DNA of 64,000 nt from Pseudomonadota bacterium (GTDB lineage Bacteria > Bdellovibrionota > UBA1018 > CAIMNF01): assembly GCA_027486675.1 (NCBI GenBank), contig JAIXOQ010000017.1, positions 123,986-187,985 of the forward strand, read 5' to 3'. Below the pieces are notes generated by a model. It searched no databases, was not told the origin of the DNA, and was given only the letters and a program-made list of their open reading frames with translations. The number at the start of each line of letters is the position of its first letter. The stretch's first letter is position 1. Both the position numbers and the translations under genes were made by a program. Below, piece after piece: positions 8,012 through 34,013 of the stretch.

Positions 8012-8524
8012 TTAAGCTGCTTGACGGGTTGCCTGGGCCTTTTTTGCAGTTGATTGGTCGTCGACATCTATGGCTTTCGCCATGTCTAAAAGTAAAACGA
8101 GTTTCTTGTCTTGCCGTGTTACTCCAATGATGTAGTCACTGGATTTATTACTCTGAATGTCGGGACGATCACTAATGTCTGATTCCCTAAGCGGCAACAC
8201 ACTGTTCACAGAGTTCACAACGATCCCGATACAAAGAGGTGCCAAATCACAAATGATCACTGCTGTCTCAGTATTCTGGTCCGCCTTAATCCCAAATTTC
8301 AGTCTGAGGTCGATCACAGAAATGACCTGGCCCCGAAGATTCATAATCCCGAGAAAGTGGGAAGGTGTGTATGGGATACGCGTGATATCTGGATAGGCTA
8401 TGACCTCCTTCACAGAGAGCAAAGGAACGGCGTAGGCTTCAGTTCCTAAAGAAAACTCTAAGAACCTCCTGAGTTCACCTGACTTTTCCTCAACCTGCTT
8501 CATACCCTCTTTGTCTTTAATCAT
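8012..8524 (-). CDS. cheW: Chemotaxis coupling protein CheW
   Basis: 170 aa with CheW-like domain (YAVPLLSVKEVIAYPDITRIPYTPSHFLGIMNLRGQVISVIDLR). Start overlaps the cheA stop (ATGA). Confidence 0.85.
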   Translation of the reverse strand: MIKDKEGMKQVEEKSGELRRFLEFSLGTEAYAVPLLSVKEVIAYPDITRIPYTPSHFLGIMNLRGQVISVIDLRLKFGIKADQNTETAVIICDLAPLCIGIVVNSVNSVLPLRESDISDRPDIQSNKSSDYIIGVTRQDKKLVLLLDMAKAIDVDDQSTAKKAQATRQAA

Positions 8525-10383
8525 GCGACTCCCCTTAGACTTTGTGTTGTTCGATCACGGCCCTGCGTACGATTCACGAGTTCTGCCACATCTAGAATCA
8601 GCGCTGCTTTTCCATCCCCAAGAATCGCTCCACCGGTAATTCCTTTAAGACTACGAATTTCAGCACCCAGCTGCTTAATGACCACCTGTTGCTGCCCGAT
8701 AATATCGTCAACCAGCACCGAAAATGCGTGATCGCCTGAGCGAACTACGATCGCAATCGCGGTCGATGGATCGATTGGTTTTACCTTTTGCCCTAGAAGG
8801 GTGCCTAACCGGTGCAAGGGTAGATTTTCCCCTCTTAGGCCAAGCACTTCTCCCATTCCAGTCACATAAGAGACATCTTCTTTTGCAGGTTGCAAAGATT
8901 CATGCACTTGGGTGATCGGAATGATGTACTTTTCTGTCCCTGCCTGAACGACCATGCCATCTATAATTGCGAGTGTCAGAGGGAGCAGAATCTTAAAACA
9001 GGTTCCCTTACCGAGCTCGGTCTGCAAAAGCACTTCACCGTGTAATATTTTCTCGACATTCGTTTTTACAACGTCCATCCCAACACCTCGGCCAGATATT
9101 TCTGTCACCTGACTGTGAGTTGAAAATCCAGGGGCAAAAACAAGGGCGTGACATTCAGCCTCTGTCAGCTTTTGCTCTGCTCGGATGATCCCTTTTTCAA
9201 TTGCTTTTTGGCGAAGCTTCTCAGCATTGAGGCCCTTCCCGTCATCCCTAATTTCTAAAACGATCTGATTCCCCTGGTGGTAAGCGTTGAGCGTAATGCG
9301 GCCAGCTTTTGACTTGCCCATCTGTTCACGTTCCTCGCCTGATTCGATTCCATGATCCACGGCATTCCTAATCAAATGGACTAAAGGATCGCCTAAATGT
9401 TCTACGACGGTTTTATCTAGCTCGGTCTCATCTCCTATGAGCTCAAGATGGATCTCTTTTCCAAGTATCTTAGACGTATCCCGAACTATGCGTTGCATCT
9501 TTTGAAATGTTTGCTTCAAAGGAACCATACGCAGGCTCATCGAAATGTCCTGAATATCCTTAGTAATTTTTGCAAGCTGACCAATTGTTTTCTGAACGAG
9601 TGGTGACTCAATATGCACTCGCTGCTGATCAAGCACCGTCTGCATAATCACAAGCTCGCCCACGTTATTCAGTAAGGTTTCAAGCCGCTTCAGGCTCACA
9701 CGAATATTTTCGTCCTGCACCTGTTGTGGCGGTTGAGCGGGACCTGCTTGGGGAGCTTGAACTGGAGCAGATACTGCTGCCGCTGGCGGGATTACTCGGG
9801 GCTCTACCTGGGAAGCTTCCGGTGTGGCTATGGGCTCAGCTTCGATGGATTCTCTCACTAAGGGGATGAGCTCCGCAAAATGTTCAGTCTCTTCCTCGGT
9901 CTTCACCTCAAAAGCGTCGGCAGATGGGTATTCAAGATCTACAGGAGAAGACGAGACCTCGAGTGGCTCCTCAGAGATAGCCTCGAGAACTACCGTCTTG
10001 CCACTCAATTGGGCGCGGATCTCCTCTAAGAGGGCTACGCTGTCCATCTTGGCTTCAAAATCGGCTTTTAAAGCATCAACCCAAACCCGCAGGTGGTCGT
10101 TGCACTGAAGAAGCAAACTCACGGTCGCAGTGTGGATCTGAAGTTCACGATTCTTTAATTTTAAAAGGAGGGATTCTAGTTCGTGGGTGAACTCACCCAT
10201 TTGGATAAATCCTACACCCCGTGCACTGCCTTTCAGATTGTGAGCAAGACGAAATATTTTCTCTAAGATAGAAGGGTCTTCTGAACGTGTTTCAAGGTCC
10301 AAGAAGCACTGTTCCGTGTCAGCGAGTAGCTGTGCCGCCTCATCTAGAAACCCAGCTTTTAATTCTCTTTCAAAGTCATCCAT
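8521..10383 (-). CDS. cheA: Chemotaxis histidine kinase CheA
   Basis: Hpt domain (FRLAHNLKGSARGVGF). HATPase_c (HLIRNAVDHGIE...GRGVGMDVV). C-terminal CheW-like regulatory domain. No fused receiver. Confidence 0.9.
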   Translation of the reverse strand: MDDFERELKAGFLDEAAQLLADTEQCFLDLETRSEDPSILEKIFRLAHNLKGSARGVGFIQMGEFTHELESLLLKLKNRELQIHTATVSLLLQCNDHLRVWVDALKADFEAKMDSVALLEEIRAQLSGKTVVLEAISEEPLEVSSSPVDLEYPSADAFEVKTEEETEHFAELIPLVRESIEAEPIATPEASQVEPRVIPPAAAVSAPVQAPQAGPAQPPQQVQDENIRVSLKRLETLLNNVGELVIMQTVLDQQRVHIESPLVQKTIGQLAKITKDIQDISMSLRMVPLKQTFQKMQRIVRDTSKILGKEIHLELIGDETELDKTVVEHLGDPLVHLIRNAVDHGIESGEEREQMGKSKAGRITLNAYHQGNQIVLEIRDDGKGLNAEKLRQKAIEKGIIRAEQKLTEAECHALVFAPGFSTHSQVTEISGRGVGMDVVKTNVEKILHGEVLLQTELGKGTCFKILLPLTLAIIDGMVVQAGTEKYIIPITQVHESLQPAKEDVSYVTGMGEVLGLRGENLPLHRLGTLLGQKVKPIDPSTAIAIVVRSGDHAFSVLVDDIIGQQQVVIKQLGAEIRSLKGITGGAILGDGKAALILDVAELVNRTQGRDRTTQSLRGVA

Positions 10384-10454
10384 ACCTGCACACCCTTACT
10401 CAAGTTTTCGGAAGCTTGAATCATTTACTTAAGAAGCCATTGATCTGAGGCCGT

Positions 10455-12671
10455 TTAAACGTCTTCGAAGCGGGGATCATCTTTTGACGGGACTTCAAAG
10501 TTTGCGCTCTTACCGGCTCCTACGGCTTCTTTATGCTCTGAAGGCACTGATTTCTCGGGCTGATTAGTTTTTGACGCTCGTCTTTTGGCAATAGGAACCA
10601 CATTCTCTTTCGAGTCACCACTACTGGTCGACTTAGGCGCATCGGTCTCGCTAGAACCGGAGGCGGCCTGCTGGGCGTCAAAACTCCCATTGATCACGAA
10701 GAACAGATCCCGCACCATTTGGCGAAGTTCTTCGGCCTGGGTGCTCAGCGACTCGGCTGAAGATGCTGTGCTTTGGGAAATTGCAGAGTTCTGCTGCGTG
10801 ACTTGGTCGAGCTGATTCATGGCTTTATTGATCTCGGCTACCCCCTGGGCTTGCTCCTGGGATGCTGATGAAATCTCGCCCACCATGCCATCCACTTCTT
10901 GAACAGTAGAGAGAATCTTGTTCAATACCTCTCCACACCGCGCTGCCACCTGCATTCCAAGGCCAACCTTCTCTTTGCTCTCGACTACGAGGCGTTCAAC
11001 CTCAGTTCTAGTCTCTGCTACAATCCCTTCTACCTTCTGGATGCTGGATTCGAGCATAGTAGAAATTTCTTTTGCCGCATTCCCACTCATTTGAGCAAGA
11101 TTCCCGACCTCCTCAGCAACTACAGCAAATCCCTTTCCATGCTCACCAGCGCGTGCCGCTTCGACAGAGGCATTAAAAGAGAGAAGCTTCGTCTGAAATA
11201 CGATGTCATTGATGACTTTTGTCTTGTTCCCAATCTCGCTAATGACTTTCACGATTTCACCAATTTGACGATTTCGCTCCTCGATCTGATTCATGATTGC
11301 TGTATTGCTGTCGCTGATGTCAGCAATCGATTTTGACATTTCTTGTACCGCCTCTTGCCCCTCTTCGGCAGTGGTTCGGCTCGTCTGTGAAACTTTCTGA
11401 GACTGACTTGCATTATCGGCACTCATTTTAACCATGGAACTGACTTCATCAATCGAAGCTGCAGTTTCTTGGATGGCCGCTGCCTGTTCTACGACTGCTT
11501 CTGAAAGACCTGTGCTTGAGCGGGAGATCTGAGAAGCTGCGTTAAATACCTCGTTTGATCCATGCGATAAACGACCCGCAAGACCTGACAGGCTCTTTGA
11601 GAGGGAAATCGCAAAGAAGTAAGAGATCAGCGATGCAAGTGCAATAACCACCGCAAAGATCCCGTAAAATATATTTTGAGCTTGGATGAGCGCGCTCATC
11701 GCCTCTTTCTGTGAATCCTTAACGAGCACAGACCACCCTATGCTATCTACAAACTTCCCACCACTGACCGGTACAAATCCAGCAATCTGCAAGTCGCCTG
11801 TTTTTGTGTTTTTCTCAAGAAGGGCTCCAGACTTCTTTGCTGATAAAGCCGCCCATGCTGCGCCAGTTTCAGTTTCTTTGAGTAGTCTGTTCCAGTCGTA
11901 CTTCGAATCACTCAGAACCTCTATCTTCGGGTCAGACGAGTACTCAAAGAGCACTGTCCCGTCATGGCGAACCATAGAAAGCTCAGAGCTTCCGAATCCA
12001 CTTTTCTTTAACCCTGCATAGAGCTCTTTAAAGGCGACTTCAAACCAACGTGAACCTGCACGGTTGGTGATCACTCCAATCACCTTGCCACTTGCGTTTT
12101 TGACCGCTGCACTGAAGCTTGATCCTAAACGATCTGAACCAAAAACCTTGCTAGTGTACGGATCAACGTGCACGTCTTCCACAAAAGTTCCTGCAAAAGC
12201 TTTCGCCTTATCTTCTGTGAATTTCCCCTCCATCACAGCTTTAAACCATGGGGCCTCTGAATAATTCTGTTCATAGAGAGGTTTTACAGCGATGTCTTCG
12301 CCACCAGGTGTTTTGCTGGAAGTAGCGACCAGGTGTCCTTTTGCATCGACCAACATGATCAGATCGTAGATGCCATAAAGTGCGCTCCAAGAGTTGAGCA
12401 TGTCTACGATCGATTGCTGGCTGCTCGCTTGAATTGCCGGGCTAATCGCAAAGGCCTGAACGTCGCCGTAACGCTCAAAGAACTGTGCGCCGATAGCATC
12501 ACTTAAGCTTCTGGCATAGGCTTCAAAGCTATCGAGCTGTGCCTTTTCTTGCGTGCCCACAATGTGCTTTAACACCCCCACAGAGGCGGCACCCAGAAGC
12601 ACCGTGATCCCCATGGAAAGAGCGATGAGTTTAAATTTAAGAGATTTGCCATTTTTCATTTGCTTGTTCAT
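10455..12671 (-). CDS. Methyl-accepting chemotaxis protein with periplasmic Cache-type sensor domain
   Basis: ORF 10455..12764. Likely start at internal Met ([26 protein letters not shown]). TM1, periplasmic Cache-like region, TM2, HAMP, MCP signalling domain ([44 protein letters not shown]). Confidence 0.85.
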
Positions 12672-12735
12672 CCGTGATTGCTCATCGGCAGGGCACAAAG
12701 AAAATGTAAAAAAATTAATGTAGACTAGCCGCAGC

Positions 12736-13518
12736 ATGACTTTAGCAGGCAAAACCACCGCCAATATTCCTTCACCCCCACTGCTTCTGATCGGAAAAGG
12801 AAAGCTAGCTCAGCACATGCAAACGTACTGCAAGCTCATGAATGCACCATTTCTGTGGCACAAAGACGCAAGAAGTCTAAACGATGACTTCAGCGCATTG
12901 TGTCAGACTGAGGTCGGGCGACTTAGACCGACCATGGCCTGGATACTGGTCTCGGATCGCGCAGTTCCTCTTGTCACAAGGGGAGTTCGCGCACTAGCCC
13001 CGCATTTAAAACTTTTTCACGCATCAGGTGCGCTTAAGGTGGAGGGCGCCACAGCTCTCCATCCCCTATTCACTTTTGGTCCCGACCCCTATCCACTTCA
13101 GATCTATCAGTCCTTCCCCCTCACATTGATCGGCAGAAGATGGGCAGATGAAGAAATACTCCTGCAATTTTGCTCTACCTACTTTTCTAAAAATCAAAGA
13201 CTTGAGTTCCATGAAGACCATCAGGCCTTTTACCACGCTCTCTGCGTGATGGTTTCTAACTTCCCTCAGATCCTTTGGGATATGAGCGGGACTGCACTTC
13301 AAGATAAAACTGGCGTGAATAGAACCGTCTTTACACCGATCATTCTGCAAGCAGCTGCGAATTTTGCACAGTCTGCAGACCGTGCACTGACCGGCCCTTT
13401 GGCTAGAGGTGATCAAGAGACGATAACTAAGAATTTAAGCGCGCTCGGTGAAACACCACTTCGCGGACTTTATGAAGCATTCCTTAAGAGTTACTCAAAA
13501 CCTTCGGAGGACACGTAG
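12736..13518 (+). CDS. Rossmann-fold / DUF2520-like putative oxidoreductase
   Basis: N-terminal dinucleotide-binding-like motif ([13 protein letters not shown]). C-terminal region contains a TGPLARGD motif reminiscent of DUF2520. Divergent from the che operon. Confidence 0.35.
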
Positions 13519-14897
13519 TCTGTTGCAACCGATGCCTGATAGCGTGCCAGGGCACGGAGGTAATCCACTTTCGAATCAATCTGACGAATCATCGCTTCTG
13601 AGGATTGTTGTTCTCTAAGGTTCACAAAGATCAGATTGCTCGACCCCAGTTTGAATCTCCGTCGTTCACCTTGCTCCAATGAATGTGCAGTTTGAAACTC
13701 TAACCCTGCAAGCTCCACACGCTTACGCGCCTGTTCAAGCGCAGAAAGCACATCTCTCAGCTCCTGCTCTACCCTCTGCATCAACAACTCTTCTTGTGCT
13801 TCAATTTGAATCAAAGTTGCGCGTGCGCTCTCGCCTCGTCCTTCGGCCACATTCACCTGAAGGGGGATCTCGAGCCCAGCGCCAACCTCAAACCCATTAC
13901 CGTATTTTGCATAAAGTCCGGATGCCATGTTTCGAACGGCTCCAACCTGGAGATCAAGACGGGGCAAAACTTGGTTTGACGCAAGTTTAATGTCTAGCTC
14001 TATTTGCTGCTTTCTTGCCCGGATACGAGCGACATCTGGGCGACTGGCTATTGCTGCTTTCTCCTCCTCCTTCAGTTCAGTTCGAGGAAGAGGTCCGTAA
14101 GGAGCATGGCTGATATCCGCAGGCAGCGCCAATGGCTCGGTGCCCGCACCTCGCTCGATCGTTCTAGGGGTTCCGTTATCATCCCGAAGATAAAGAGCAA
14201 GTCTAAAGGATGCTTCCTGCAACGCACGTTCGCTTGCTACCTTTTGAGCCTCTCTTTGTAAAATTGCCCGTCGATTGTCATCAACGTCAAACTTGGGTAG
14301 ATCCCCTCGTTTGACCTGCATTTCAAGCTGAGAGCCTCTCTCCGACGCAACGTGCAATAGCTCTTCAAATACTTCTAGTCGCTTCACAGCTGCCAGCCAC
14401 TCCCAATAGACCATGGTAGCGTCACGCCGAATTTCAATTTTCTGTTGTGCGGAAAGCTGAACTGCAGCATCACGGCCAATGACAGACTGCGCCAATGAAA
14501 CGCGCCTGCTATCTAGAGGGCCGTCTCTCAGTAAAGGTACGTTTAACCCGGCGCGCATTTGACCAGGAGAAGGAGCATCACTCAAACCATAGTAAGGAGG
14601 GAACACCCCATTTGAAGACCTATAACCTGCGAATAGTGAAGTCCCCCAAATGGTAGTTGGCTTCTCTAGAAGAGCATCAAAACGAGTCGTATTATACTGA
14701 TCCCCAAATACACGAGCAGCATTTCCACGGAACCGAATATCAAACTCTCCTTCTGAGGTTTGAACCCGCCCTTCAGCGACTCCTTTTTCTGCATCGGCTG
14801 CTCGCATCATGGGAAATGATCTTTCCACCGATCGAATCACATCCTTTAAGGTAATGGCGAATGACGACTGATTCAGGAGCAACGCTAGAAACAGCAT
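13491..14897 (-). CDS. TolC-family outer-membrane efflux protein
   Basis: 468 aa. N-terminal signal peptide. Two coiled-coil/beta-barrel repeats typical of OEP family. Last gene of the ABC-HlyD-TolC unit. Confidence 0.7.
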   Translation of the reverse strand: MLFLALLLNQSSFAITLKDVIRSVERSFPMMRAADAEKGVAEGRVQTSEGEFDIRFRGNAARVFGDQYNTTRFDALLEKPTTIWGTSLFAGYRSSNGVFPPYYGLSDAPSPGQMRAGLNVPLLRDGPLDSRRVSLAQSVIGRDAAVQLSAQQKIEIRRDATMVYWEWLAAVKRLEVFEELLHVASERGSQLEMQVKRGDLPKFDVDDNRRAILQREAQKVASERALQEASFRLALYLRDDNGTPRTIERGAGTEPLALPADISHAPYGPLPRTELKEEEKAAIASRPDVARIRARKQQIELDIKLASNQVLPRLDLQVGAVRNMASGLYAKYGNGFEVGAGLEIPLQVNVAEGRGESARATLIQIEAQEELLMQRVEQELRDVLSALEQARKRVELAGLEFQTAHSLEQGERRRFKLGSSNLIFVNLREQQSSEAMIRQIDSKVDYLRALARYQASVATDYVSSEGFE

Positions 14898-15917
14898 CTA
14901 CTTCTTGCTCACTTTTTTTGCGGCTTTTTCATCTGGGGAATCAATTGTTGCGGGGAAGCCATTTACTTTTCGCCAGAGTTCATAGCCAAGCCTGACCCTT
15001 CCCAGGAGTACCCAGCCGTTGACTCGCACGCCTTGACGCAGATATTGAGCTGCAGGCCAGTGGTATTCTCCTCCTTCCGGAAAAACTAGAATCCTAAACT
15101 TCCCGGTCTCACCTCCTGCTGAATCAACGCTTCCAACCCTACCCCCAAACGTTCCTACTGCGACTGACGGCCAACCTGCAAACTGAACCGCAGGCCACCC
15201 CTCAAACTGAAGGCGCACTTCTTGCCCTTCATGGATGAGCGGCATGTCATTCCCATCAATCCATAACTCGACGGCGCGCATCTGAGTGTCTGGTACGAGT
15301 TGCGCTAAGACCTCACCGGTTTTAATCACCGGACCGCCCTCGGGCGCGAGGATTCTAAATATTGAACCATCACGAGGAGCCGTCAACACTTGAGATCCCT
15401 GCCGAGTCAACCGAAGGTCAATTCGCGCTAACTCAGCCTTAGCAGTCGCAACATCAGATTGAAACCTTTGATACTCAATCCTGGCGAGTTCATAACTTCG
15501 TTCAGCCGACAAACCTTGATCGGCAAGCTCTCGCTGACGGCCCACGTTAATTTGTGAGGTCTTTTGCGCGGACTCCGCAGCAAGAAGACGTGACTTTGCG
15601 GCCTGTCGCTCTCTTTCCAGTTTTTCCATGATCTGAGGATCTAAATCGGATATCTCAACGAGAGGATCTCCACCTTGAACTCTTTGCCCCTCCACGACGT
15701 ACCACTTCGAAACACGCCCATCTACTGTTGCACCGATTTGCTGGATACGCTCATTGGGCGCGAAAGCGATCACTTTTCCTGTGCCTAGACTCGTCTGAAC
15801 CCACGGAGTGACCACCAGTGAGACGAGCCAAAATGCCAAAAACCAAATCAAATAACGTGCAAATTTAGGCATCTGATCTTCAATTGGGACTTGCTCTAGC
15901 GCTCGGTAATTCTTCAC
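14898..15917 (-). CDS. HlyD-family membrane fusion (periplasmic adaptor) protein
   Basis: N-terminal TM anchor. Biotin-lipoyl-like hairpin (VVEGQRVQGGDPLVEI). Long coiled coil, beta-barrel C-terminus. Start overlaps the upstream ABC gene. Confidence 0.75.
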   Translation of the reverse strand: MKNYRALEQVPIEDQMPKFARYLIWFLAFWLVSLVVTPWVQTSLGTGKVIAFAPNERIQQIGATVDGRVSKWYVVEGQRVQGGDPLVEISDLDPQIMEKLERERQAAKSRLLAAESAQKTSQINVGRQRELADQGLSAERSYELARIEYQRFQSDVATAKAELARIDLRLTRQGSQVLTAPRDGSIFRILAPEGGPVIKTGEVLAQLVPDTQMRAVELWIDGNDMPLIHEGQEVRLQFEGWPAVQFAGWPSVAVGTFGGRVGSVDSAGGETGKFRILVFPEGGEYHWPAAQYLRQGVRVNGWVLLGRVRLGYELWRKVNGFPATIDSPDEKAAKKVSKK

Positions 15918-17515
15918 AAGATCACCCCACCCTCTTTGACCACTAAGACATCACGCACATAGGGGCGATAGCGCTCTGGGTAACTCGAAATAAGTGCAAT
16001 AGCCCAAGGTGTACCTTGACCCAAAATGTTTTTCACCACAGCGTCGTACCCCTTTTCATCCAGCCCACTGAGTGGTTCATCGAGGAGAAGAATCTTCGGT
16101 GATTGAAAAGCAAGGCGAGCAAAAACTACCAGGCGCTTTTCGGAATCAGGAAGATCTTGAGCGCTCGTCTCCTGGGAGTAACGTCCCAGACCGAAGGTCG
16201 CCAAAAGATCTGGTAATTCGTGTGCTCTTTCATGGGACTTGTGAAGCATGACGTTTTGGGCAATAGAACCGCCAAAGACTTCTGGAAGTTCATGCCCACT
16301 GACGTACGAAATGAATTGGGACACTTGGACCGAAGAAAGCTCATGCGTTGGGAAGCCCCCTAAACGCACGCTATCCAATCTTGCGCCGTCATAACCAAAG
16401 ATTCTACGACGCATGGCTTTTTTATTCGCCCGACCATCTGCATGAAAAAGAACTCGAAATCCAGGTTCACCAGTCCAGCCGTCGACCTGTAACGAAATAG
16501 GACTTTGTTCCTGTAAGAGATCACGCCCCTCCGTCTTTGCCTGAATCTCGAGATCCGTTACCTCAAGTACCTTTTCTGACGCAGCTGACAGATCGTAGAT
16601 GTTTTCAAGAAGCTTTCCTAGTTTGGCCAAAGCACTTAAGACCAGAGCAAGCACCAGCTCAGCAGCCACCAGTTGACCAAGACTGAGTTGCTCCTGCTGA
16701 ACGAGCAATGAGCCAAGACCTAATAAAAGAACGGCAGAAGCAACCTGAAGACAAAGCGAGAAAGTCCATTGGCGATAAACCGTTTTAAAGTGATCCGCAC
16801 GGTAGTGCAGCCATCCTTCAAGCAAGATATCAGTCTTTTCTAATGCAAATGACCTGCCCCGGGCGGAATGGAAAACAGTTTCAAAGCTTGCCATCTCAGA
16901 CAACCAATCCACAAAAGTGTATTTGGCTTTTGACTCACCGCGAGCTGATCCCCAGGCGGTACGACCTGAAATCACCACAATCCCATAAAGCGCGAGTCCA
17001 ATGAGCACAGCAAAAGCCATCAGAATCGGATGGTAGATCGCTAGCAATAATAGACCCATCGCCGTTTGAAACAGTACAGCTACTCCATCGAGCACCAGCT
17101 GGGAGGTAAGCTTTTGCACGGTCACAACATCTAAGAAACGGTTCATCCTTGCGCTTAAGGTATGAAAGGCATCGCTTGCCCAATTGGCCATGGTCAGTCG
17201 TTCTGCCACTTCAATTCCGCTTTTCACAAAGAGCCGCCGCTGGATTCGCTCCAATGTTCGGATCTGTATGAGTTGTACGACTGCAGAAAAACAAAGTAAT
17301 GCGGATAGAAAGACACTGAATACAAAGATGGGCTGCTGCACCGATACCAGCCCGGCCGAGTTCACGACTGACTGAACAGCAAGAGGAATGGCCAGACTTA
17401 AAATACCTACGACCGCAGAATAGAGAATGACCGCATAGAAGCTAGATCGTTCATCCGAAAAGAGACGGCTTAGATTTCGGCGAAGGAAGACAAAAGGATT
17501 TTCCCTATGGGGCAT
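15914..17515 (-). CDS. ABC exporter (TMD-NBD fusion, type I secretion-like) with degenerate nucleotide-binding domain
   Basis: Six predicted TM helices followed by an NBD with Walker B (ILLLDEPLSGLD). Walker A is aberrant (ADGRANKK). Signature LSGGQ is replaced by LPDSEKRL. H-loop His is absent (ISSYPERY). Confidence 0.65.
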   Translation of the reverse strand: MPHRENPFVFLRRNLSRLFSDERSSFYAVILYSAVVGILSLAIPLAVQSVVNSAGLVSVQQPIFVFSVFLSALLCFSAVVQLIQIRTLERIQRRLFVKSGIEVAERLTMANWASDAFHTLSARMNRFLDVVTVQKLTSQLVLDGVAVLFQTAMGLLLLAIYHPILMAFAVLIGLALYGIVVISGRTAWGSARGESKAKYTFVDWLSEMASFETVFHSARGRSFALEKTDILLEGWLHYRADHFKTVYRQWTFSLCLQVASAVLLLGLGSLLVQQEQLSLGQLVAAELVLALVLSALAKLGKLLENIYDLSAASEKVLEVTDLEIQAKTEGRDLLQEQSPISLQVDGWTGEPGFRVLFHADGRANKKAMRRRIFGYDGARLDSVRLGGFPTHELSSVQVSQFISYVSGHELPEVFGGSIAQNVMLHKSHERAHELPDLLATFGLGRYSQETSAQDLPDSEKRLVVFARLAFQSPKILLLDEPLSGLDEKGYDAVVKNILGQGTPWAIALISSYPERYRPYVRDVLVVKEGGVIL

Positions 17516-17545: not shown

Positions 17546-18337
17546 TCACCGTGCACGTTCTAAAATAGATGGTCCAGGGTAGAGAGGAAACTGCACTTGC
17601 GAGAACCCACTGAATCCCGGGTCAATAAAAGGCGATCGACTTACTCCGAAACCCACCAAGAGTGAGGCTCCAGAATCAAACTTATAGGTGCCTGCGGGTC
17701 CGGCCATCAAGGAACTATTTCTACTTTGGATTGCACGCGTGCTGAGCCCCGCTAAACCAAGACTCAAGTGATCGGTCGTTTTTACAAGCAATGCTGAAAG
17801 AAACGACAACATGGTCTCGCCGCCTGACTGTCCGCGGACCACCGTCATTTCATCAAAGAACTCGGGCAGGCCCCCAAGACTTCGCACTCGCTCGTATCTC
17901 CACTGGACCAGGAACGAAACACGCTTGACTGCGATGACAAAGTGACCTCGGACGAATCGACGTTGTGTTTGGCCTACGCACTGAAAGGTAGTGCAGTCGA
18001 CAAAACCCGGCCGAAACGCTCGAAAAGTAAAGTCCTGCCCAAAGCTCAAAAGTAAAATAGAAATGGGTGCAAATTGAACCTCACCCCCGATTCGATTCAC
18101 GACTCCTATGCTCCCTGCATTGAGGGCGGTACGGGCGTAACCGTACTTCCAGGCACCTTCATCATAAAGCTTTTTGGAGTACCCAGCAGAGGCCACCGCG
18201 AGTGCACCGGCAGGATAAGTCCGCGCCAACCCTCCGACCGAAAGATCAAATTCTGCATAGGATGGATGCGGCAGAAGAAACAATGCTAGCCAAAACACTT
18301 TTACGAAGCCGCTTTTTAACCATGCAATGTGCATCAT
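17546..18337 (-). CDS. Hypothetical secreted protein
   Basis: 263 aa. N-terminal signal peptide (VFWLALFLLPHPSYA-EF). No recognised domain. Confidence 0.4.
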   Translation of the reverse strand: MMHIAWLKSGFVKVFWLALFLLPHPSYAEFDLSVGGLARTYPAGALAVASAGYSKKLYDEGAWKYGYARTALNAGSIGVVNRIGGEVQFAPISILLLSFGQDFTFRAFRPGFVDCTTFQCVGQTQRRFVRGHFVIAVKRVSFLVQWRYERVRSLGGLPEFFDEMTVVRGQSGGETMLSFLSALLVKTTDHLSLGLAGLSTRAIQSRNSSLMAGPAGTYKFDSGASLLVGFGVSRSPFIDPGFSGFSQVQFPLYPGPSILERAR

Positions 18338-19407: not shown

Positions 19408-20070
19408 ATGAAGCTCGGTTTTCAAGAAGTTAAGGACGAAGAACTCCACTACGAGTTCAATGAGACGGCCCCTTGGGTGATGGAGATTATCGGCAAGCTC
19501 GACGAGCAATCTGTACAAGTCACAAGGCCTGCAAACTGGAAACCACGCTCTCGAAAAACCCGAGTCAACCTCAATATCCATCGCATCGATGAACTCATCT
19601 CAGTTCGCGGAACGATAGAGACTCAGCTTTTTCTGCTCTGCTCCCTGTGTGCCGACGGATTTCCGTTTCCAATTAAAAGAGACTTTAACGCCCTCTATAC
19701 GGTGAACCCAGAGTTTGCTGAGACTCCGAAAGAAAAGTCTCACAATACTTTTGAACCGATGGATCTTGCCAACGACACCCTAGATGATTCCGATCTCGAT
19801 GAAGATGACGAGGATGGTTTTTTTAAGCCCCAAGATCTGGACGGAAGCGACTACGAGGTCACCTTGCTTGAGGAGCCCATCTTAGATTTTCCAACAATCC
19901 TCAATGAACAAATTATCCTTCATATACCGATGCAACCGAAACCAGCTCTGAACGAGGATGGGGACTGCCAAAAATGTGGCAAGCCACAGGAAGCCCTCTA
20001 TCAACCTGCGAAAGAGCCCCTACAAAGGAATCCTTTCGCAGCTCTTAAGAATTGGAAGCGGGAGAACTAA
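19408..20070 (+). CDS. DUF177 (YceD-like) family protein
   Basis: Core VRGTIETQLFLLCSLCADGFPFPIKRDFNALY, and a second C-x2-C near the C-terminus (CQKCGK). Acidic linker. Resembles YceD. Confidence 0.45.
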   Translation: MKLGFQEVKDEELHYEFNETAPWVMEIIGKLDEQSVQVTRPANWKPRSRKTRVNLNIHRIDELISVRGTIETQLFLLCSLCADGFPFPIKRDFNALYTVNPEFAETPKEKSHNTFEPMDLANDTLDDSDLDEDDEDGFFKPQDLDGSDYEVTLLEEPILDFPTILNEQIILHIPMQPKPALNEDGDCQKCGKPQEALYQPAKEPLQRNPFAALKNWKREN

Positions 20071-20882
20071 CTATTTTTCTTCTGATCTCCCTTTTGTGTT
20101 TTTCGCCCGATAGCCTCGCCGCGCTGAATTTAGATTCTTTTATTTCTAACGGCGTGATTGACACCAGTATCTTAGAAGACTCCGTCCCCCAGAACGTCGT
20201 CGATGCAATCGTAAAAACGATGGGTATTTACACCATGCATCGGCCAAGCATGGGCGCCTCTAGTTTAGGAAGCACGGGAACACTTTCAGGCCATGTCGAT
20301 GTCTACATTGAAGGCACGCTTGTTAAGTTTAGTCCGATCATCATCAACGCGCTCAAGCAGACCGAACTTGGAAGTAACGGCATCGGAGACACGTCGAAGT
20401 TTCCGGCCCTTCCAATCGCAAAACTACACGTCGACGCTGCGATCAACGAGCGCACAGCCTTTGGAATATCTGGGATTTACTATCCTGGAAACTACATCGC
20501 TGGAGGCCATATCCAGCATGTTCTTTGGCAACCCGAAGAAGGTCTGTACATCACTGGGCGTTTGTCCGGAACCTATGCTTCCATTCCCATCGCCTACACC
20601 ACTCTCAGTACCTGGAGCCCTGAAATCGTCGTCGGAAAAGCCATGTCCTTTGCCGATCCCTACATCGGAGTTTCCTACACGCTCATCGCGGGAACCTTTG
20701 ATATCACCTTAGACAATCCGCCATTTCCGATCACACGCGTGAAAGCACGAGGGGGCGGCAGTACCGCGTCCTCCTTCATGGGCGTCATTTTTAGAATGCC
20801 CTTCTTTCGTTTGGGCCTGGAAGGATCCTACAACCTGGATGGCTTCCACACCGTCGGTTCCACAGTAGGGCTGAGTTTTTAA
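20052..20882 (+). CDS. Putative outer-membrane beta-barrel / secreted protein
   Basis: Signal peptide (LLISLLCFSPDSLAA). Alternating hydrophobic pattern, C-terminal ...GLSF (aromatic terminal residue typical of OMPs). Confidence 0.4.
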   Translation: MEAGELTIFLLISLLCFSPDSLAALNLDSFISNGVIDTSILEDSVPQNVVDAIVKTMGIYTMHRPSMGASSLGSTGTLSGHVDVYIEGTLVKFSPIIINALKQTELGSNGIGDTSKFPALPIAKLHVDAAINERTAFGISGIYYPGNYIAGGHIQHVLWQPEEGLYITGRLSGTYASIPIAYTTLSTWSPEIVVGKAMSFADPYIGVSYTLIAGTFDITLDNPPFPITRVKARGGGSTASSFMGVIFRMPFFRLGLEGSYNLDGFHTVGSTVGLSF

Positions 20883-23386
20883 ATCTTTGGAAACCAGCGA
20901 CACGCGGCTGAAAGAGCACTCAAGGCAGCTGCTCTGAGTTGATTCACAAATTCACGGTCTAAGTAGGTTTGGCGGTGTGCTGCTGGATTTCTTAAATCCT
21001 GAAGTTGCATGAGTGTCTTTGCCAAATGAATGAGTTCATCGTCCTGGCCGAGAGACGGGATTCGAGCTGTATCTTTGCCAGGAAGTTTTCGACAAAAGAC
21101 CAGGATCACGACTGCCCATGCGCGCAAACCATCAAAAACACGAAATCGATCTTCTGCAATTCGCCCATCAAAGAAAGCCTTCGTCATGGTTTTAGCTTTA
21201 TGCACAGGGATGAGTTCTGTGGGCAGCTTCTTTGTCGCCCCTATCCGTTCTAAGAATCGATCCGGGGCAAGGTAGTCCTCACGGAGCCCCAAACTCTGCA
21301 TCTGCGACTGCACCTCAGACAATCGATTTTCTAGAAGGGGAAAGAATCGCTCCGCGCCTAAACGTCGATCTAAGGTGAGATCAATCGCTTTGCACCACTG
21401 AATCAAGGCCGGCGCTAAATCAAAGGCTCGATCCGCTTTTAGGCTTTCACTCACTAAAAGTTCCGCCGACCGCAAGGTCGATTGAATCACCGGAGGGAGT
21501 GCCGCAAATTCTGGTAAGTCTTTTACTATCGACTCATCCAGGTGTGGAATGGAGGCTTTTATTTTGTCCCCACCTGCGCCTCCTAAACGATCCCTCAGCG
21601 CCGTCCATTTGTTGAGCGCAACGTGATTTGGAGACTTTTGAATAAGCGCATCCATCCGGGATACCAGGCTTGGATCAGCCTCACCTGGGATGGGCTTAAA
21701 CCTGCGATAAATCACATCCACAATTTCTGGATCATCCGAATGGCTTTCTAACACATGAACCAAAGCTGCGCGTGCAGTAGGCAGTTCAATACGCAGTAAA
21801 CTATCGACTGCCCGACCCAGGATGATTGGATGCTTTGATTCGGTTTCCACAATATTTAAAAGTCTGGAAACCGCTCCTTGAGACCTTCGAAATGAACCCA
21901 GCGCAATGACTGCATGGAGGCGCACTGCATCCTGATCGGACCTAGACTCGGAAAGGGTCCACTCTTCAAATTCTGGGACTGGGGCTCTACGAATCATTCT
22001 GAGAAGGGCCAACTCAGACGCTTCACCTAAATGAGGACCTGTTTTTATGCATTGGATCAGGAACTGAGAAAGAGGTCCCGGCTTCAGCTGATCGAGATGA
22101 TTAGAAAAGAGTTCTAGTAAATGCGGCAGCAGCTCTTTTTGCACGCCGCTGTTCAGCGTCAGGAAGTCCTGAAGGATTTTCTGGCAGTCGAGCGTGGTCT
22201 TTATACTAGCCCCGAATCGAAGCCACGCTTTCTGCACCACTAAAGAAGAGACCGAAGAAAACTTATAGAAATCTTCAAGATATTCAGAGGAATTGCCGAT
22301 TTCTGCGATCGCACGAATCGCGCGAGCCCTGCCTTCGTCTGATCCCCTAAGAAGCTGGCTGCGCGGCAAATCCACTTTCTTACCAATCGAAGCAGCCATT
22401 TGCCAAAGGTTGATCCAAGCAATCTGTGTATGAGTGTCTGCAGCCAACCCCAGTTGGGTGCCGAGCATCTCTTGTAAATCAGTCGTTCCCTGAGCAAAGA
22501 GCACCATCCACTGAGCAGCGTCAGGGTCTGAGAACAAGTTCTTGGGCCTACGGGACTCTCCCAAACGAGCCGCAACTTTAAAGTCTGAAGCATCCCACGT
22601 AACAGCCTGAATCAGTTCAGCCGCCCATGAGGTATCGACCCCATGCAGCACAGAGATCGTCTGACTTGCGGTCAGCGGCGTGAATTGCGAAAGGGCAGAT
22701 TGGACCTCCGTGTCTGGGTATGTACCCAGTTCAAAGGACAAATGGGAATGATGACTTTCCTCTGACAAAAGAGTCTGCAAAACCTGTATTGCACGAACCC
22801 CTTTGCGCGCAGTTGCTTGCTTGATAGCCGCCTGGGCTAATCGGTCTAAGGCCGGACTCTCCTGGAACAGAGACCGAAGTTCTTCGATTTCATGGGGGCT
22901 ACGGCTGATTGAACCCAGTGCCATCAGACAGGCCTTCTTCAGCTCTATACTACAATCGCCCTGCAGCATTCGAATCAAACGGGTGGCCATTCCAGCATGT
23001 CGAAATTCGCTCAAACTTAAGATCACTGCTTCCTGGTGACGGCTTTGCTCTGCTTCAAATCCTGCCTTGTCCCACTCCTTCACCAATGCGTGCTTCACCT
23101 GGAGCCAAGGGATTGCGTTTGCTGCCTCCACCCAATCGGTCAGTAAAGATGGCTGAATTTTTTCGTAAAGACTTAAGAATGCAGCGCTCGCATAGGGATC
23201 CCTCATTTGCGCGAGGGACCTCAGTGCGAGCGCTGCTTCGCCCAGATCCTTGGGGTCAACGATGACTTCCATCAGAAGTTCTATCGTTCGTGGATGAGGA
23301 AATGCCCTCATTTTTTTGAGAGCAGCGATCCGTGTTTTTCGCCATTCACTCTGCCGATACGAAAAAACAAGATCACGTGCTTTCAA
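20879..23386 (-). CDS. Large HEAT/PBS-lyase-repeat protein with a C-terminal HEPN-like region
   Basis: 835 aa. Recurring HEAT-like repeats (DPEIVDVIYRRF, AVRLHAVIALGSF, RARAIRAIAEIGNS). C-terminal LQDLRNPAAHRQTYLD contains an R-x4-H motif. Confidence 0.5.
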   Translation of the reverse strand: MKARDLVFSYRQSEWRKTRIAALKKMRAFPHPRTIELLMEVIVDPKDLGEAALALRSLAQMRDPYASAAFLSLYEKIQPSLLTDWVEAANAIPWLQVKHALVKEWDKAGFEAEQSRHQEAVILSLSEFRHAGMATRLIRMLQGDCSIELKKACLMALGSISRSPHEIEELRSLFQESPALDRLAQAAIKQATARKGVRAIQVLQTLLSEESHHSHLSFELGTYPDTEVQSALSQFTPLTASQTISVLHGVDTSWAAELIQAVTWDASDFKVAARLGESRRPKNLFSDPDAAQWMVLFAQGTTDLQEMLGTQLGLAADTHTQIAWINLWQMAASIGKKVDLPRSQLLRGSDEGRARAIRAIAEIGNSSEYLEDFYKFSSVSSLVVQKAWLRFGASIKTTLDCQKILQDFLTLNSGVQKELLPHLLELFSNHLDQLKPGPLSQFLIQCIKTGPHLGEASELALLRMIRRAPVPEFEEWTLSESRSDQDAVRLHAVIALGSFRRSQGAVSRLLNIVETESKHPIILGRAVDSLLRIELPTARAALVHVLESHSDDPEIVDVIYRRFKPIPGEADPSLVSRMDALIQKSPNHVALNKWTALRDRLGGAGGDKIKASIPHLDESIVKDLPEFAALPPVIQSTLRSAELLVSESLKADRAFDLAPALIQWCKAIDLTLDRRLGAERFFPLLENRLSEVQSQMQSLGLREDYLAPDRFLERIGATKKLPTELIPVHKAKTMTKAFFDGRIAEDRFRVFDGLRAWAVVILVFCRKLPGKDTARIPSLGQDDELIHLAKTLMQLQDLRNPAAHRQTYLDREFVNQLRAAALSALSAACRWFPKI

Positions 23387-23414: not shown

Positions 23415-23756
23415 CTAAGCTTTCTTCGCGTCCACTTTGCGGTTAAATGTACGGCACCAGCCTTTAGCGGCGACTTCTCCCGTAGGAAAAATCGTGCATT
23501 TTCCATTCACCTTATCTACGGGGGAGTAGAAGGTGCAGTTTGCACAGACATCGTCATTCTTCTTTTTGAGCTTTTTCCACTCGTCGCTTTTCGTCGCGTC
23601 GTGGACGTAAGCCAAACTCAAAGCCAACCCCTTTTTTTCCTCAATGAGGGCGGAAAATGCCTCCCGAATCTTAAAAAATGGGGAAACGGCTACGGCTCCA
23701 ACAACCAGACCGAGCCTCTTCAAAAATTCTCTACGCTGCGTAAGATTGTCTTTCAT
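23415..23756 (-). CDS. High-potential iron-sulfur protein (HiPIP), Tat-secreted
   Basis: Twin-arginine signal (RREFLKRLGLVVGAVAV). Four Cys in HiPIP spacing (CANCTFY...GKCTIF...GWCRTF). 113 aa. Confidence 0.75.
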   Translation of the reverse strand: MKDNLTQRREFLKRLGLVVGAVAVSPFFKIREAFSALIEEKKGLALSLAYVHDATKSDEWKKLKKKNDDVCANCTFYSPVDKVNGKCTIFPTGEVAAKGWCRTFNRKVDAKKA

Positions 23757-23817
23757 TAGTTTAAACGTTTCCTTTCCCTTTCTATTCTACCCAAGATCGC
23801 TGACAATTAACCTTCGA

Positions 23818-26800
23818 ATGAAAGTACCGAGCCTGCAGGACCTAAAGCGCCTTGGTCCGCGACAACTGCGCCAAAGTCTTGAACCCTCTGCGTTAGAGAG
23901 GGGAGCCCAGTTTTTGCGCGAAGGCGCTTTTGATGGAATTGAAATTAGTCAGATGGGCTCATCCGGCCAACGGATCGAGTTTCAATTTGTCGATCCTGCC
24001 TACCCGCAGGCGCGCTGCAGCCTAGACGTTGAGTCCCCAGGCCGCCCCGTCTATACAGCGTGCGACTGCAATCACGCTTCTCACGGAATCTTCTGCAAGC
24101 ACCAAGCGGCCGCCGTTTTGGTCTGCGCCTATGCTCTAGGTGCAATCGATGAATTTGCCCGTCTCCCCGACCCCGTCCTTAAGAAAATTGATACCGTGGC
24201 TCCCGAACTGGAGCGCCTCAGGGCTCAGAGAGCCTCTGTTGAGGCAGCGGCTGCCAAGCAGAATGCTCCCGCCCTTCAGGCCATCATCCTCCTAGATCTC
24301 ATTGATATTGAGGCCCTTGAGCTCGAGCAAGTCGTTTTCACCCGCACATTTGAACGCCGTCCTCGGGACACTGCCTACGTTTCCTACCTTCGCCCTGGGG
24401 ATTTTGTTGACCTGGGTCGGACCCTCTATCTTTTCGACGATGGGACGCTGTGTCGATCCCGGGATCTTCCCTTCTTTGCGGGGGTGACCGATTTAGCTCC
24501 CGAGCTGATTCCTCAGTCGGAAACGCTCGCATCCTGGATCGCGTCCATCTCTCGGTTTCAACAGCTACGTGCACTTCCTGTGTTCCTTTCAAGCGTCGCT
24601 CGCTTTATGGAAGACCGTCGTGCAGTGCGTCTAAATGGCGTATTACCCCATGTTCCAGATGAATTGGAACGAGCACTCATTGCAGAACAACTCAAGGGTG
24701 AACCTGAAAAAGTTCGCGTCCGATATGAAGTTCCTGAAGCCCTCTGGTTACTGGGTGGCACCTTTGCTTTGCACCGGAAAGACGGAACGCTTTCACCCCA
24801 CCGCTTAGAGCGGGGCGGCCGAGCTCCAAGCGAAGGAATTTTTACGGCACCTGCAGAGCTTGCGAAATTTTCGCATCAACATGGCTCACTTGGCCTCAGG
24901 CTGACTGGAAAACAGAAGGTGCTTTCAGCAGATGAAATCACTCCTTGCGTCGAGCTGACTGATGCAGGGGAACTCTGTTTGACCCTGATCGCAAAGGATG
25001 GCTTAAAGCTCAATGGGTTAACTCCAGCGCAGATGCCGCTCCTTCGTGCGGGTCAAGAGGGTTTAAAATGGCTGATTCCTGAGGATTTCGAGCGCGAAAT
25101 CGAAGGAAAAAAATCCGCAAAGACCCCCACTCATCTCAAGCTCTTTAAACATGCGGGTGTTGCGCTTGTGGTGATTGAAGATTGCCTCTCCATGCTTCTT
25201 GCCGGCACACCTTGGAACGAAGAACAACAAACGAGGCTTGAAGCTAAGGTCGCAATCCTACTTCTTCGCTTAGAGGGCACAGTCGCCGGAGCATTACCTA
25301 AGACGCTGGAATCCATGACCTCCCGCGGAGCACTTGAGATCTTCAGAAAAATTCCAAACGCAATTCGTGATCTCACTTTAAACGCGCCGACGCTGACCTG
25401 GACCAATGGCCTTTGGATCACGATCCCTTCGTGGGGAGCGGTACAAGCTCGCGTCCTCCTTCACTGGCTAAGGGCTCTGTTTGAACTTCGCGGCGGCGAT
25501 CTTTGGTTAAGATCCCGTGATGCGTGGGTTGACCCTGAAGTCGTCGGTCTTTGGGATTCTGACCCAGGCGTAAAGGTCGGACCAAAACATTGGCTGAGAT
25601 TTCAAAATAAGAAACGATTTGAACTCGATCTTTTTCTGAAGGCGTTTTCAACGCTCCCTCAATTTGGTATCGGCATTCGTCTAAACGAGCTCCCAGTTGA
25701 AGAACTCACGGATTCAGACTGGAAGTCTGACTTCATGCTGAGCGAGATCGAACGCGCACCTGGCAAGATTGATTGGTTTGAGCTTCACCCTCGCTTCTAC
25801 CTCCGGGGTGCAGAAATTTCTGAGACACAGGCAAAAGAGCTCGCTGAACGTGGGATGCTCCGCCACAACGGTAAGGTTTTCCGCGTGGCTTCGTCTCTCC
25901 TTCCTCAGATGGAAGAATTGGCGCGCTTCTGGGAACAAATTCAACCCCTCACAGAAGCGAAAGCCACAAAGAAAAAAGCAGGCGAGGAGCGGATCTATCC
26001 ACTGGCCCGTCACGCAACTCTTGAGCTTTTGTTGCTGCGGGCTTCAGGCTTGCCGATCCGCGGTGGTCAGCACTGGGCAAATGTTTGTCAGTTTTATGAT
26101 CGTTTAGGCGAAGAACGTCCTCAATTTGAGATTCCAAAGACCTTCAAAGGGGAACTGAAGCCCTATCAGGTCCGTGGAGTCGAATGGATCCACGATCTTT
26201 ATCAACTGCGCATGGGCGGAATTCTTGCCGACGATATGGGTCTTGGGAAAACAGTCCAAACCTTAGCTTTTTTAGAACACCTGCGCCTCACCGGAGAACT
26301 CGGCCCCACCCTAGTGATCGTCCCTACTTCGCTCACCTTCAACTGGAAGAACGAATGCGAACGCTTTACACCTGGGCTTTCGATGCACCTCTTTCAGTCG
26401 CGTGCGATTGCTGACTATCAAAATTTTATTACGAAGAACCCTGGAAGCGTAGTCCTTGTGACTTATGGACTTCTCGCTGAACACGCAGAAATGTTCCAGC
26501 AAACTGCCTGGAATATTCACATCTACGATGAGGCGCAACATCTAAAAACCCTCACAGCAAAAAGAACGACCGCATCACGTCAAGTTCGCGCTGATTTTAA
26601 AATCTGTCTCACAGGAACGCCGCTTGAGAATCACTTAGGTGAGCTTTTCTCTCTTGTGGATCTCGTGGTGCCTGGAAGTTTAGGCTCGCTCGATCGTTAC
26701 AAACGGACCTACCTCACTTCATATGCGCCGGACCCTGAACGAGTGCGTTACCTCAAGTTAAAGACAAGGCCTTTGATTTTAAGGCGTACTAAGCGCGCGA

Positions 26801-33936: not shown

Positions 33937-34013
<77 letters not shown>

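Follow-up and report, generated by a model that had tools for sequence, protein, structure and literature searches.

An ABC-type exporter gene with a degenerate nucleotide-binding domain in a HlyD/TolC-type operon of a Bdellovibrionota bacterium

The DNA analysed here, 64,000 nucleotides of contig JAIXOQ010000017.1 from a bacterium placed by GTDB in the Bdellovibrionota (the window, below), carries a three-gene operon for a putative tripartite exporter. Its inner-membrane component is a protein of the ATP-binding cassette (ABC) type whose nucleotide-binding domain (NBD) has lost most of the motifs of an ABC ATPase, and it is this protein and its family that we describe. The operon and the gene upstream of it are given below in window positions, with Pfam matches or, where none is given, as open reading frames (ORFs).

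15914..17515, minus strand: ABC-like gene, 533 residues, inner-membrane component (ORF)
14898..15917, minus strand: HlyD-type adaptor (membrane-fusion) gene, 339 residues (Pfam HlyD_3, 3.8e-16, and HlyD_D23)
13491..14897, minus strand: TolC-type outer-membrane factor gene, 468 residues (Pfam OEP, 1.2e-31, two repeats)
17546..18337, minus strand: signal-peptide protein gene, 263 residues, 30 bases upstream of the ABC-like gene (ORF)

The start of the adaptor gene overlaps the stop of the ABC-like gene by 4 bases, and the TolC-type gene begins on the base right after the adaptor gene ends, leaving no gap. The adaptor protein has a short cytoplasmic N terminus and one transmembrane (TM) helix, and the NCBIfam models RND_mfp and type_I_hlyD both match it below their cut-offs. 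An ABC gene clustered with a HlyD-type adaptor gene and a TolC-type gene is the arrangement of type I secretion loci, and it is the arrangement found here. An earlier note, made from the sequence alone, had described a HlyD/TolC-coupled ABC-type exporter, and the HlyD_3 and OEP matches of the two downstream genes bear that description out. The 263-residue gene is probably co-transcribed with the operon. In a sister locus (L001, the locus of the relative P0002), synteny is kept from this gene through the cassette to a set of chemotaxis genes. Promoter and terminator scans of the operon gave counts no higher than the shuffled expectation.

We placed the domains and motifs of the ABC-like protein by aligning it first to 12 and then to 120 homologues. 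A comparison of the family profile with P-glycoprotein NBDs in the PDB supported the register for every motif.

16541..17515, minus strand: membrane domain (transmembrane domain, TMD), residues 1–325, carrying the near-invariant residues of the family
15917..16498, minus strand: NBD-like domain, residues 340–533 (AlphaFold2 (AF2) fold; proportion of non-synonymous differences (pN) 0.22; Pfam ABC_tran, 24.2 bits)
16418..16441, minus strand: Walker A remnant ADGRANKK, residues 359–366 (homologue alignment)
16295..16306, minus strand: Q-loop position YVSG, residues 404–407, with Ser406 in place of Gln and a three-residue insertion, HEL, after it
16139..16153, minus strand: signature remnant LPDSE, residues 455–459, in place of LSGGQ (homologue alignment)
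16058..16093, minus strand: Walker B ILLLDE, residues 475–480, and D-loop SGLD, residues 483–486 (homologue alignment)
15980..15991, minus strand: H-loop position ISSY, residues 509–512, with Ser511 in place of the switch His

Four of the five ABC ATPase motifs are lost from the protein. The Walker A pattern GxxGxGK[ST] has lost its glycines and keeps its lysine (K365), and the one motif that is present is Walker B (hhhhDE) with its D-loop. The strings ADGRANKK, LPDSE and ILLLDE and the missing Q-loop Gln and H-loop His had all been reported in the earlier note, and each was recovered in the alignment to 120 homologues; its picture of a degenerate NBD stands as regards the motifs lost, but it had overlooked that K365 and the D-loop SGLD are retained. 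Two close relatives, P0121 and P0002, carry VDTRASKK and TEGRAMKT at the Walker A position and LSDAE and LPDSD at the signature position. The stretch LLLDEP[LF]SGLDEKG is common to all three proteins, with a single L/F change, in P0002; between P0121 and our protein the Walker A and signature remnants drift, whereas LLLDEPLSGLDEKG is unchanged. Drifting Walker A and signature remnants beside a constant Walker B and D-loop are what would be expected if the phosphate-binding loop were unused while the core of the domain was still needed.

The predicted structure retains the architecture of an ABC exporter. The AF2 model, built from the 120-sequence alignment, had a predicted local distance difference test score (pLDDT) of 87.9 and a predicted template modelling score (pTM) of 0.78. 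It had six long helices that extend into the cytoplasm, together with an elbow helix, short helices where coupling helices would lie and an alpha/beta domain at the C terminus. The NBD-like domain had the usual pattern of strands and helices, with a pLDDT mostly of 75–96. Foldseek searches of the PDB with this model returned PCAT1, TM287/288, PrtD, HlyB, TmrAB, ComA and MsbA, with TM-scores of 0.77–0.85 at about 15% identity and with E-values for PCAT1, PrtD, HlyB and TM287/288 of 6e-18 to 1e-15. By its predicted fold, the protein is a type IV ABC exporter.

Profile searches place the protein far from the curated ABC families. Pfam ABC_tran (PF00005) scored 24.2 bits against a cut-off of 25 and aligned only at profile positions 46–136, which leaves the Walker A part outside, and ABC_membrane (PF00664) scored 11 bits against a cut-off of 28. 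The best NCBIfam models were TIGR03375 (LssB, 51.9 bits, cut-off 693.1), TIGR01193 (bacteriocin_ABC, 47.8 bits, cut-off 523.9) and TIGR01842 (PrtD, 42.9 bits, cut-off 510.2); the HlyB model TIGR01846 was not among the 25 that scored best. The earlier note had proposed a comparison with HlyB/PrtD-type models as a check; these best models gave 43–52 bits against cut-offs of 510–693. The protein begins about 20 residues before TM1. It contains no C39 peptidase domain and does not have the N-terminal domain of 150–190 residues that is common in many members of its family. In four such members (P0028, P0021, P0078 and P0063), Pfam at E <= 10 gave no match for this domain, which, judged by its position, may be a diverged C39-like domain.

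One explanation for the loss of motifs is a frameshift or an error of assembly or sequencing. Translation of positions 15801–16700 revealed neither a GK[ST] nor a real signature in any of the six frames, and the only signature-like string, LSGQ, sits in a frame with 16 stop codons, so a hidden motif was rejected. An identical protein (P0001) is on record from an NCBI assembly. P0121 (91% identity) and P0002 (77%) come from other assemblies, are likewise 533 residues long, can be aligned to our protein with no gap and have degenerate residues where it does, which excludes a frameshift or sequencing error. Thus, the error restoring canonical motifs that would have overturned the earlier note was not found, and we give an artefact a negligible probability.

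A second explanation is that the gene has no function and is the decaying relic of a type I secretion ABC transporter, in transition to a pseudogene. Relic status would fit the faster evolution of the NBD than of the TMD (68% versus 83% identity to P0002) and the very low scores against curated ABC models. By contrast, the 533-codon frame is intact and free of insertions and deletions in three diverged genomes, the three genes remain tightly packed in an operon with conserved synteny, and all of the TMD residues that are near-invariant in the family are kept. In the ungapped comparison with P0002 (533 residues), the proportion of synonymous differences (pS) was about 0.82, which is saturated, while pN was 0.16 overall, 0.12 in the TMD and 0.22 in the NBD, which is thus still constrained; we give pN against pS because a saturated dS precludes dN/dS. 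Purifying selection acts on both domains, somewhat more weakly on the NBD than on the TMD, and the gene is intact and selected, not a pseudogene. These selection data largely refute the relic explanation, which we regard as very improbable.

The protein belongs to a large family. Its nearest relatives outside its own clade are about 36% identical over their full length (phmmer, E of 1e-60 to 1e-82), and the family, taken at E <= 1e-30, comprises 1,102 clusters at 50% identity, of which the clade of our protein is a single one. Scanning the GTDB species, each represented by a single genome, gave at least 592 species loci, mostly in Acidobacteriota (Bryobacterales and Vicinamibacterales), Planctomycetota, Myxococcota (for example, Cystobacter fuscus) and Bdellovibrionales. 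Neighbourhood counts here and below cover the best 80 of these loci. The full triad of ABC, adaptor and OEP genes was found in 68 of the 80, and 8 of the other 12 end at a contig edge.

What defines this family is its membrane domain. The TMD signature strings NRFxDVxTVQK, YHP, ESKxKY, LGQLVAAEL and YDL..A..K are all present in our protein, as are about two dozen near-invariant TMD residues, counted on 193 and 146 sequences: P44, Q61-P62, E89, N125-R126, K135, D143, Y161-H162-P163, E194-S195-K198, R239 and H242, and further Q249, G268, G280-Q281, E286, K298, Y307-D308 and K315. The invariant acidic residues among them include E286 in TM6 and D/E143 in TM3. In ABC exporters the NBD is usually better conserved than the TMD, whereas this family shows the reverse: mean pairwise identity is 56% in the TMD and 41% in the NBD, and our protein is 41% identical to the family in the TMD and 22% in the NBD.

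We then counted the motifs in two sets, given in this order below: 193 non-redundant sequences and 138 diverse cluster representatives with an aligned NBD.

Walker A GK[ST] kept: 175/193; 90/138 (65%)
Q-loop Gln kept: 0/193 at the aligned column (Arg in 147), 5 counting the next column; 6/138, 8 counting the next column
Canonical LSGGQ kept: 2/193 (the norm being L[ST]xxQ); 2/138
Walker B Asp kept: 191/193
Catalytic Glu kept: 78/193 (Gly in 64, Asp in 28); 32/138
H-loop His kept: 21/193; 26/138
Walker A, catalytic Glu and His all kept: 18/193; 13/138

The earlier note had missed that the degenerate NBD is not an isolated case. Decay of the motifs spans the family, and our protein stands at its extreme end; unlike 60% of the family, it keeps the catalytic Glu. 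Walker A has been lost in at least 10 separate lineages, and the nearest neighbours of each are Walker A-intact. In one clade (P0051), after the loss of Walker A, identity is about 92% in the TMD and still 70–79% in the NBD. In the explanation that we favour, set out below, the family descends from type I secretion or peptide-exporter ABC transporters, and the membrane domain with its cytoplasmic helical extensions is its defining conserved part. In a literature search for type I secretion ABC proteins that are degenerate, homodimeric or devoid of Walker A, we met no account of this family, nor of a tripartite ABC system that is homodimeric and whose sites are fully degenerate.

Known heterodimeric ABC exporters with a degenerate site always keep one consensus site, and those of bacteria are encoded by adjacent gene pairs. 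The protein could be the degenerate half of such an exporter, with a canonical half encoded elsewhere supplying the working site, as in TM287/288, TmrAB and BmrCD; the earlier note had likewise raised pairing with an ABC protein encoded elsewhere. We found no second ABC exporter gene beside it. In the 64-kb window, a phmmer search that started from a canonical-type NBD and a regular expression for Walker A both turned up, among all ORFs of at least 120 residues, nothing but the gene itself. A second ABC gene of the family was present in none of the 80 loci and was absent from the sister locus. Three Walker A-less members from other lineages (P0063, from a planctomycete, and P0011 and P0013, from two others) likewise sit in single-ABC cassettes. 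In 9 of the 80 loci there were weak matches to unrelated ABC ATPases, mostly of the MacB/FtsX type, and the other ABC ATPases that lay within 8–10 kb of some loci were of this type. Since genes for ABC ATPases are so common, our judgement, rather than a computed expectation, is that these are no more frequent than chance. Pairing thus gains no support from the window, the 80 loci or the three Walker A-less loci of other phyla.

The substitutions themselves do resemble those in the degenerate halves of heterodimers, in that Asp or Gly replaces the catalytic Glu within the family and the switch His is lost (PMC7756269), and TM287/288, TmrAB and BmrCD are among the top Foldseek matches. In addition, the search of the source genome spans 64 kb. 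However, the signature of our protein is itself degenerate, so that the Walker A and B of a canonical partner would face a defective LPDSE and neither composite site would be a consensus one. We therefore consider a heterodimer unlikely, though not far-fetched.

Another possibility is that the NBD still works as an ATPase, or as a switch that binds ATP, through K365, D479, E480 and the D-loop. The lysine K365 is kept in our protein, P0121 and P0002, as is the LLLDEP[LF]SGLDEKG stretch apart from its one change; our protein has the catalytic Glu and a canonical-looking D-loop, and its NBD is under purifying selection. The residue that precedes the P-loop lysine is a near-universal Gly. In these three proteins, by contrast, this residue is N, S or M, and the other P-loop positions drift (ADGRANKK, VDTRASKK and TEGRAMKT), unlike a conserved phosphate-binding loop. 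The Q-loop Gln, the Ser and Gln of the signature and the switch His are all missing, and the loss of Walker A is tolerated in about a third of the diverse clusters of the family. On this evidence we regard an NBD that still hydrolyses or senses ATP as distinctly unlikely.

The explanation that we favour, with moderate confidence, is that the protein is the inner-membrane subunit of a tripartite exporter and acts as a non-hydrolytic homodimer in which the NBD is structural. An ABC-fold protein with a HlyD-type adaptor and a TolC-type channel would form an exporter that spans the envelope. With the P-loop glycines, the Q-loop Gln, the Ser and Gln of the signature and the switch His gone, no ATP hydrolysis would be expected, and probably no canonical ATP binding. 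A homodimer without canonical ATP hydrolysis, as the earlier note had put forward, is thus a reasonable reading of the motif loss, and we infer a homodimer that lacks ATPase activity and in which the role of the NBD is structural. Of the possibilities raised in that note, a non-hydrolytic scaffold or channel would be the one that fits best. Across the family, the NBD would no longer be bound by the demands of ATP catalysis. It may hold the two half-transporters together through its Walker B and D-loop core and dock on the coupling helices. Export could then be driven by a proton gradient acting on the membrane domain, with E286 in TM6 and D/E143 in TM3 as candidate residues; passive gated release would be an alternative. 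By analogy, a proton gradient is the most plausible alternative source of energy, although this is speculative.

Several observations weigh against this explanation. The search for a partner in the source genome spans the 64-kb window, and an ABC half-transporter encoded further away would be compatible with that result. The case for proton coupling rests on conserved acidic residues, whose place in the membrane was judged from the sequence and the predicted secondary-structure string. K365, the Asp and Glu of Walker B and the D-loop are kept, and some non-canonical interaction with a nucleotide or phosphate is possible. Finally, most members of the family keep Walker A; ATP binding still matters in those proteins, and ours may differ from them.

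To look for clues to the cargo, we compared the neighbours of the cassette across the family. In 40 of the 80 loci (for example, L005:5284-5739, minus strand), the ABC gene has a divergent neighbour that encodes a regulator of the ArsR family (Pfam HTH_5, a helix-turn-helix domain, 5.6e-06). At least 12 other loci, among them those of Walker A-less members (L088 and the P0013 locus), have a LysR-family regulator beside the cassette. No ArsR or LysR regulator was found in our window. Clustering of the neighbouring ORFs across the 80 loci revealed no conserved substrate gene; the genes that recurred were the regulators. Systems for the efflux of small molecules or ions typically have a dedicated regulator next to their operon. 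The regulators and the lack of a conserved substrate gene hint that the cargo is a small molecule or ion rather than a protein of the RTX type.

The 263-residue protein encoded upstream of our gene has a Sec-type signal peptide and no match in Pfam or NCBIfam. Only six homologues of it were found, one of which is named as coming from a metagenome-assembled genome of Bdellovibrionales. Its gene adjoins the ABC cassette in the sister locus but not in more distant relatives. We considered it as a substrate or fourth component and rejected it as a conserved part of the system, as its homologues are few and none lies beside the cassette outside the clade of our protein.

Two kinds of gene were seen beside the cassette in other lineages. 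In one planctomycete, a gene for a Calx-beta/LapA-like protein of 2,356 residues (L004:2523-9593, minus strand) is divergent beside the cassette, and it is possible that this protein is a type I secretion-style cargo in that lineage. In 13 loci (L007:12691-15834, plus strand, and 12 others), the cassette is closely followed downstream by a gene for an Oar-like outer-membrane protein (CarboxypepD_reg, Plug and OMP_b-brl_4); this position may reflect inherited synteny.

The other features of the window around the operon are listed below. The domain assignments in the chemotaxis cluster come from synteny with the sister locus.

8012-12764, minus strand: chemotaxis cluster directly downstream of the operon region, with a methyl-accepting chemotaxis protein (MCP) of 769 residues, a CheA of 620 residues and a CheW-like ORF
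12736-13518, plus strand: DUF2520 gene, convergent with the TolC-type gene, the 3' ends overlapping by about 28 bases
20052-20882, plus strand: protein of about 270 residues with a signal peptide and without a Pfam match, ending ...VGLSF
20879-23386, minus strand: protein of 835 residues, whose counterpart in the sister locus has only a faint HEAT_2 match
23415-23756, minus strand: protein of 113 residues with a twin-arginine-like signal, RREFLKRLG
23644-27570, plus strand: SNF2-family helicase of 1,308 residues
1967-2039, plus strand: tRNA gene (Rfam)
33937-34010, plus strand: tRNA gene (Rfam)

The two tRNAs were the sole matches in an Rfam scan of the window, and neither is near the operon. 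Compared with the window, the corresponding region of the sister locus (L001:14013-15234) has a crcB (fluoride channel) gene between the DUF2520 and MCP genes, unlike the window, where no ORF of at least 80 residues lies between the two. The order of the genes for the 835-residue protein and the SNF2-family helicase is kept in the sister locus. The 113-residue protein is probably a high-potential iron-sulfur protein, as its syntenic counterpart there carries the HiPIP domain (PF01355). Sequence patterns suggest that the protein encoded at 20052-20882 (plus strand) and the 263-residue protein at 17546-18337 (minus strand) are small outer-membrane beta-barrels.

The general view is that an ABC exporter cannot do without at least one consensus ATP site. 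Here, an exporter encoded by a single gene, presumably homodimeric and without a consensus site, is nonetheless intact, under selection and coupled to an adaptor and a TolC-type channel, in a family that spans at least four phyla. If proteins of this kind function without ATP hydrolysis, the source of energy for trans-envelope export would need rethinking. The proposed link from ABC transporters to proton-driven, SbmA-like proteins would become testable on natural intermediates, and thousands of genes annotated as 'ATP-binding' transporters would be mis-described. If distant canonical partners pair with them instead, the arrangement would be an unusual one for bacterial exporters, an unlinked heterodimer. 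As a broader proposal, which we put forward tentatively and hold with less confidence than the mechanism above, the family may consist of exporters that are independent of ATP hydrolysis. About a third of its lineages, including that of our protein, would be independent of ATP binding too. The NBD would be vestigial and structural, and the family would be intermediate between ABC exporters and secondary or passive transporters like SbmA and theirs would be the first tripartite adaptor/TolC system to have such a protein at its base.

In architecture, the operon resembles a type I secretion system or a tripartite efflux system of the ABC type. Like HlyB/HlyD/TolC, PrtD/PrtE/PrtF and LssB, our protein has the TMD-NBD order and the type IV exporter fold, with TM-scores of 0.78–0.83 to PrtD (5l22) and HlyB (8dck), and its operon likewise encodes a TM-anchored adaptor and a channel of the OEP family. 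Unlike type I secretion ABC proteins, it has lost Walker A, the Q-loop, the signature and the H-loop and has no N-terminal C39-like domain, and no gene for an RTX-type or other candidate substrate is conserved beside its cassette; the stronger conservation of the TMD than of the NBD also separates the family from the usual ABC exporters. The top structural matches were to PCAT1 and ComA (6v9z, 8vox and 8hf6, TM-scores up to 0.85), and phmmer aligned residues 28–499 of our protein to ComA. It differs from both in that it has no C39 peptidase and no consensus ATP site and is only 14–15% identical to them, and no gene for a leader-peptide cargo was seen near it.

Heterodimeric exporters offer a second comparison. 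The degenerate sites that have been reviewed belong to asymmetric transporters that keep a second, ATPase-active site (PMC7756269). The same kinds of substitution as in our family, of the catalytic Glu, the switch His and the signature, occur in TM287/288, TmrAB, BmrCD, CFTR, TAP1/2 and MRP1 (PMC7756269). The idea that a degenerate site has a structural or regulatory role instead of a catalytic one is common to those exporters and to the explanation that we favour. Unlike them, our protein is encoded by a single gene, and its Walker A, Q-loop and H-loop are degenerate in the same polypeptide as its signature. Because both halves of the composite site are degenerate in that one polypeptide, a homodimer would be left without any consensus site.

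Precedents for an ABC-like membrane domain that works without ATP are SbmA/BacA and LmrA stripped of its NBD (LmrA-MD), which are driven by a proton gradient through conserved acidic residues (PMC8442886; PMC13316013). SbmA and BacA are importers that have neither an NBD nor coupling helices and work without an adaptor or TolC. Our protein differs from them, and does not fit the SLiPT definition (no NBD and no coupling helices), in that it keeps an NBD-like domain and the regions of the intracellular loops and coupling helices.

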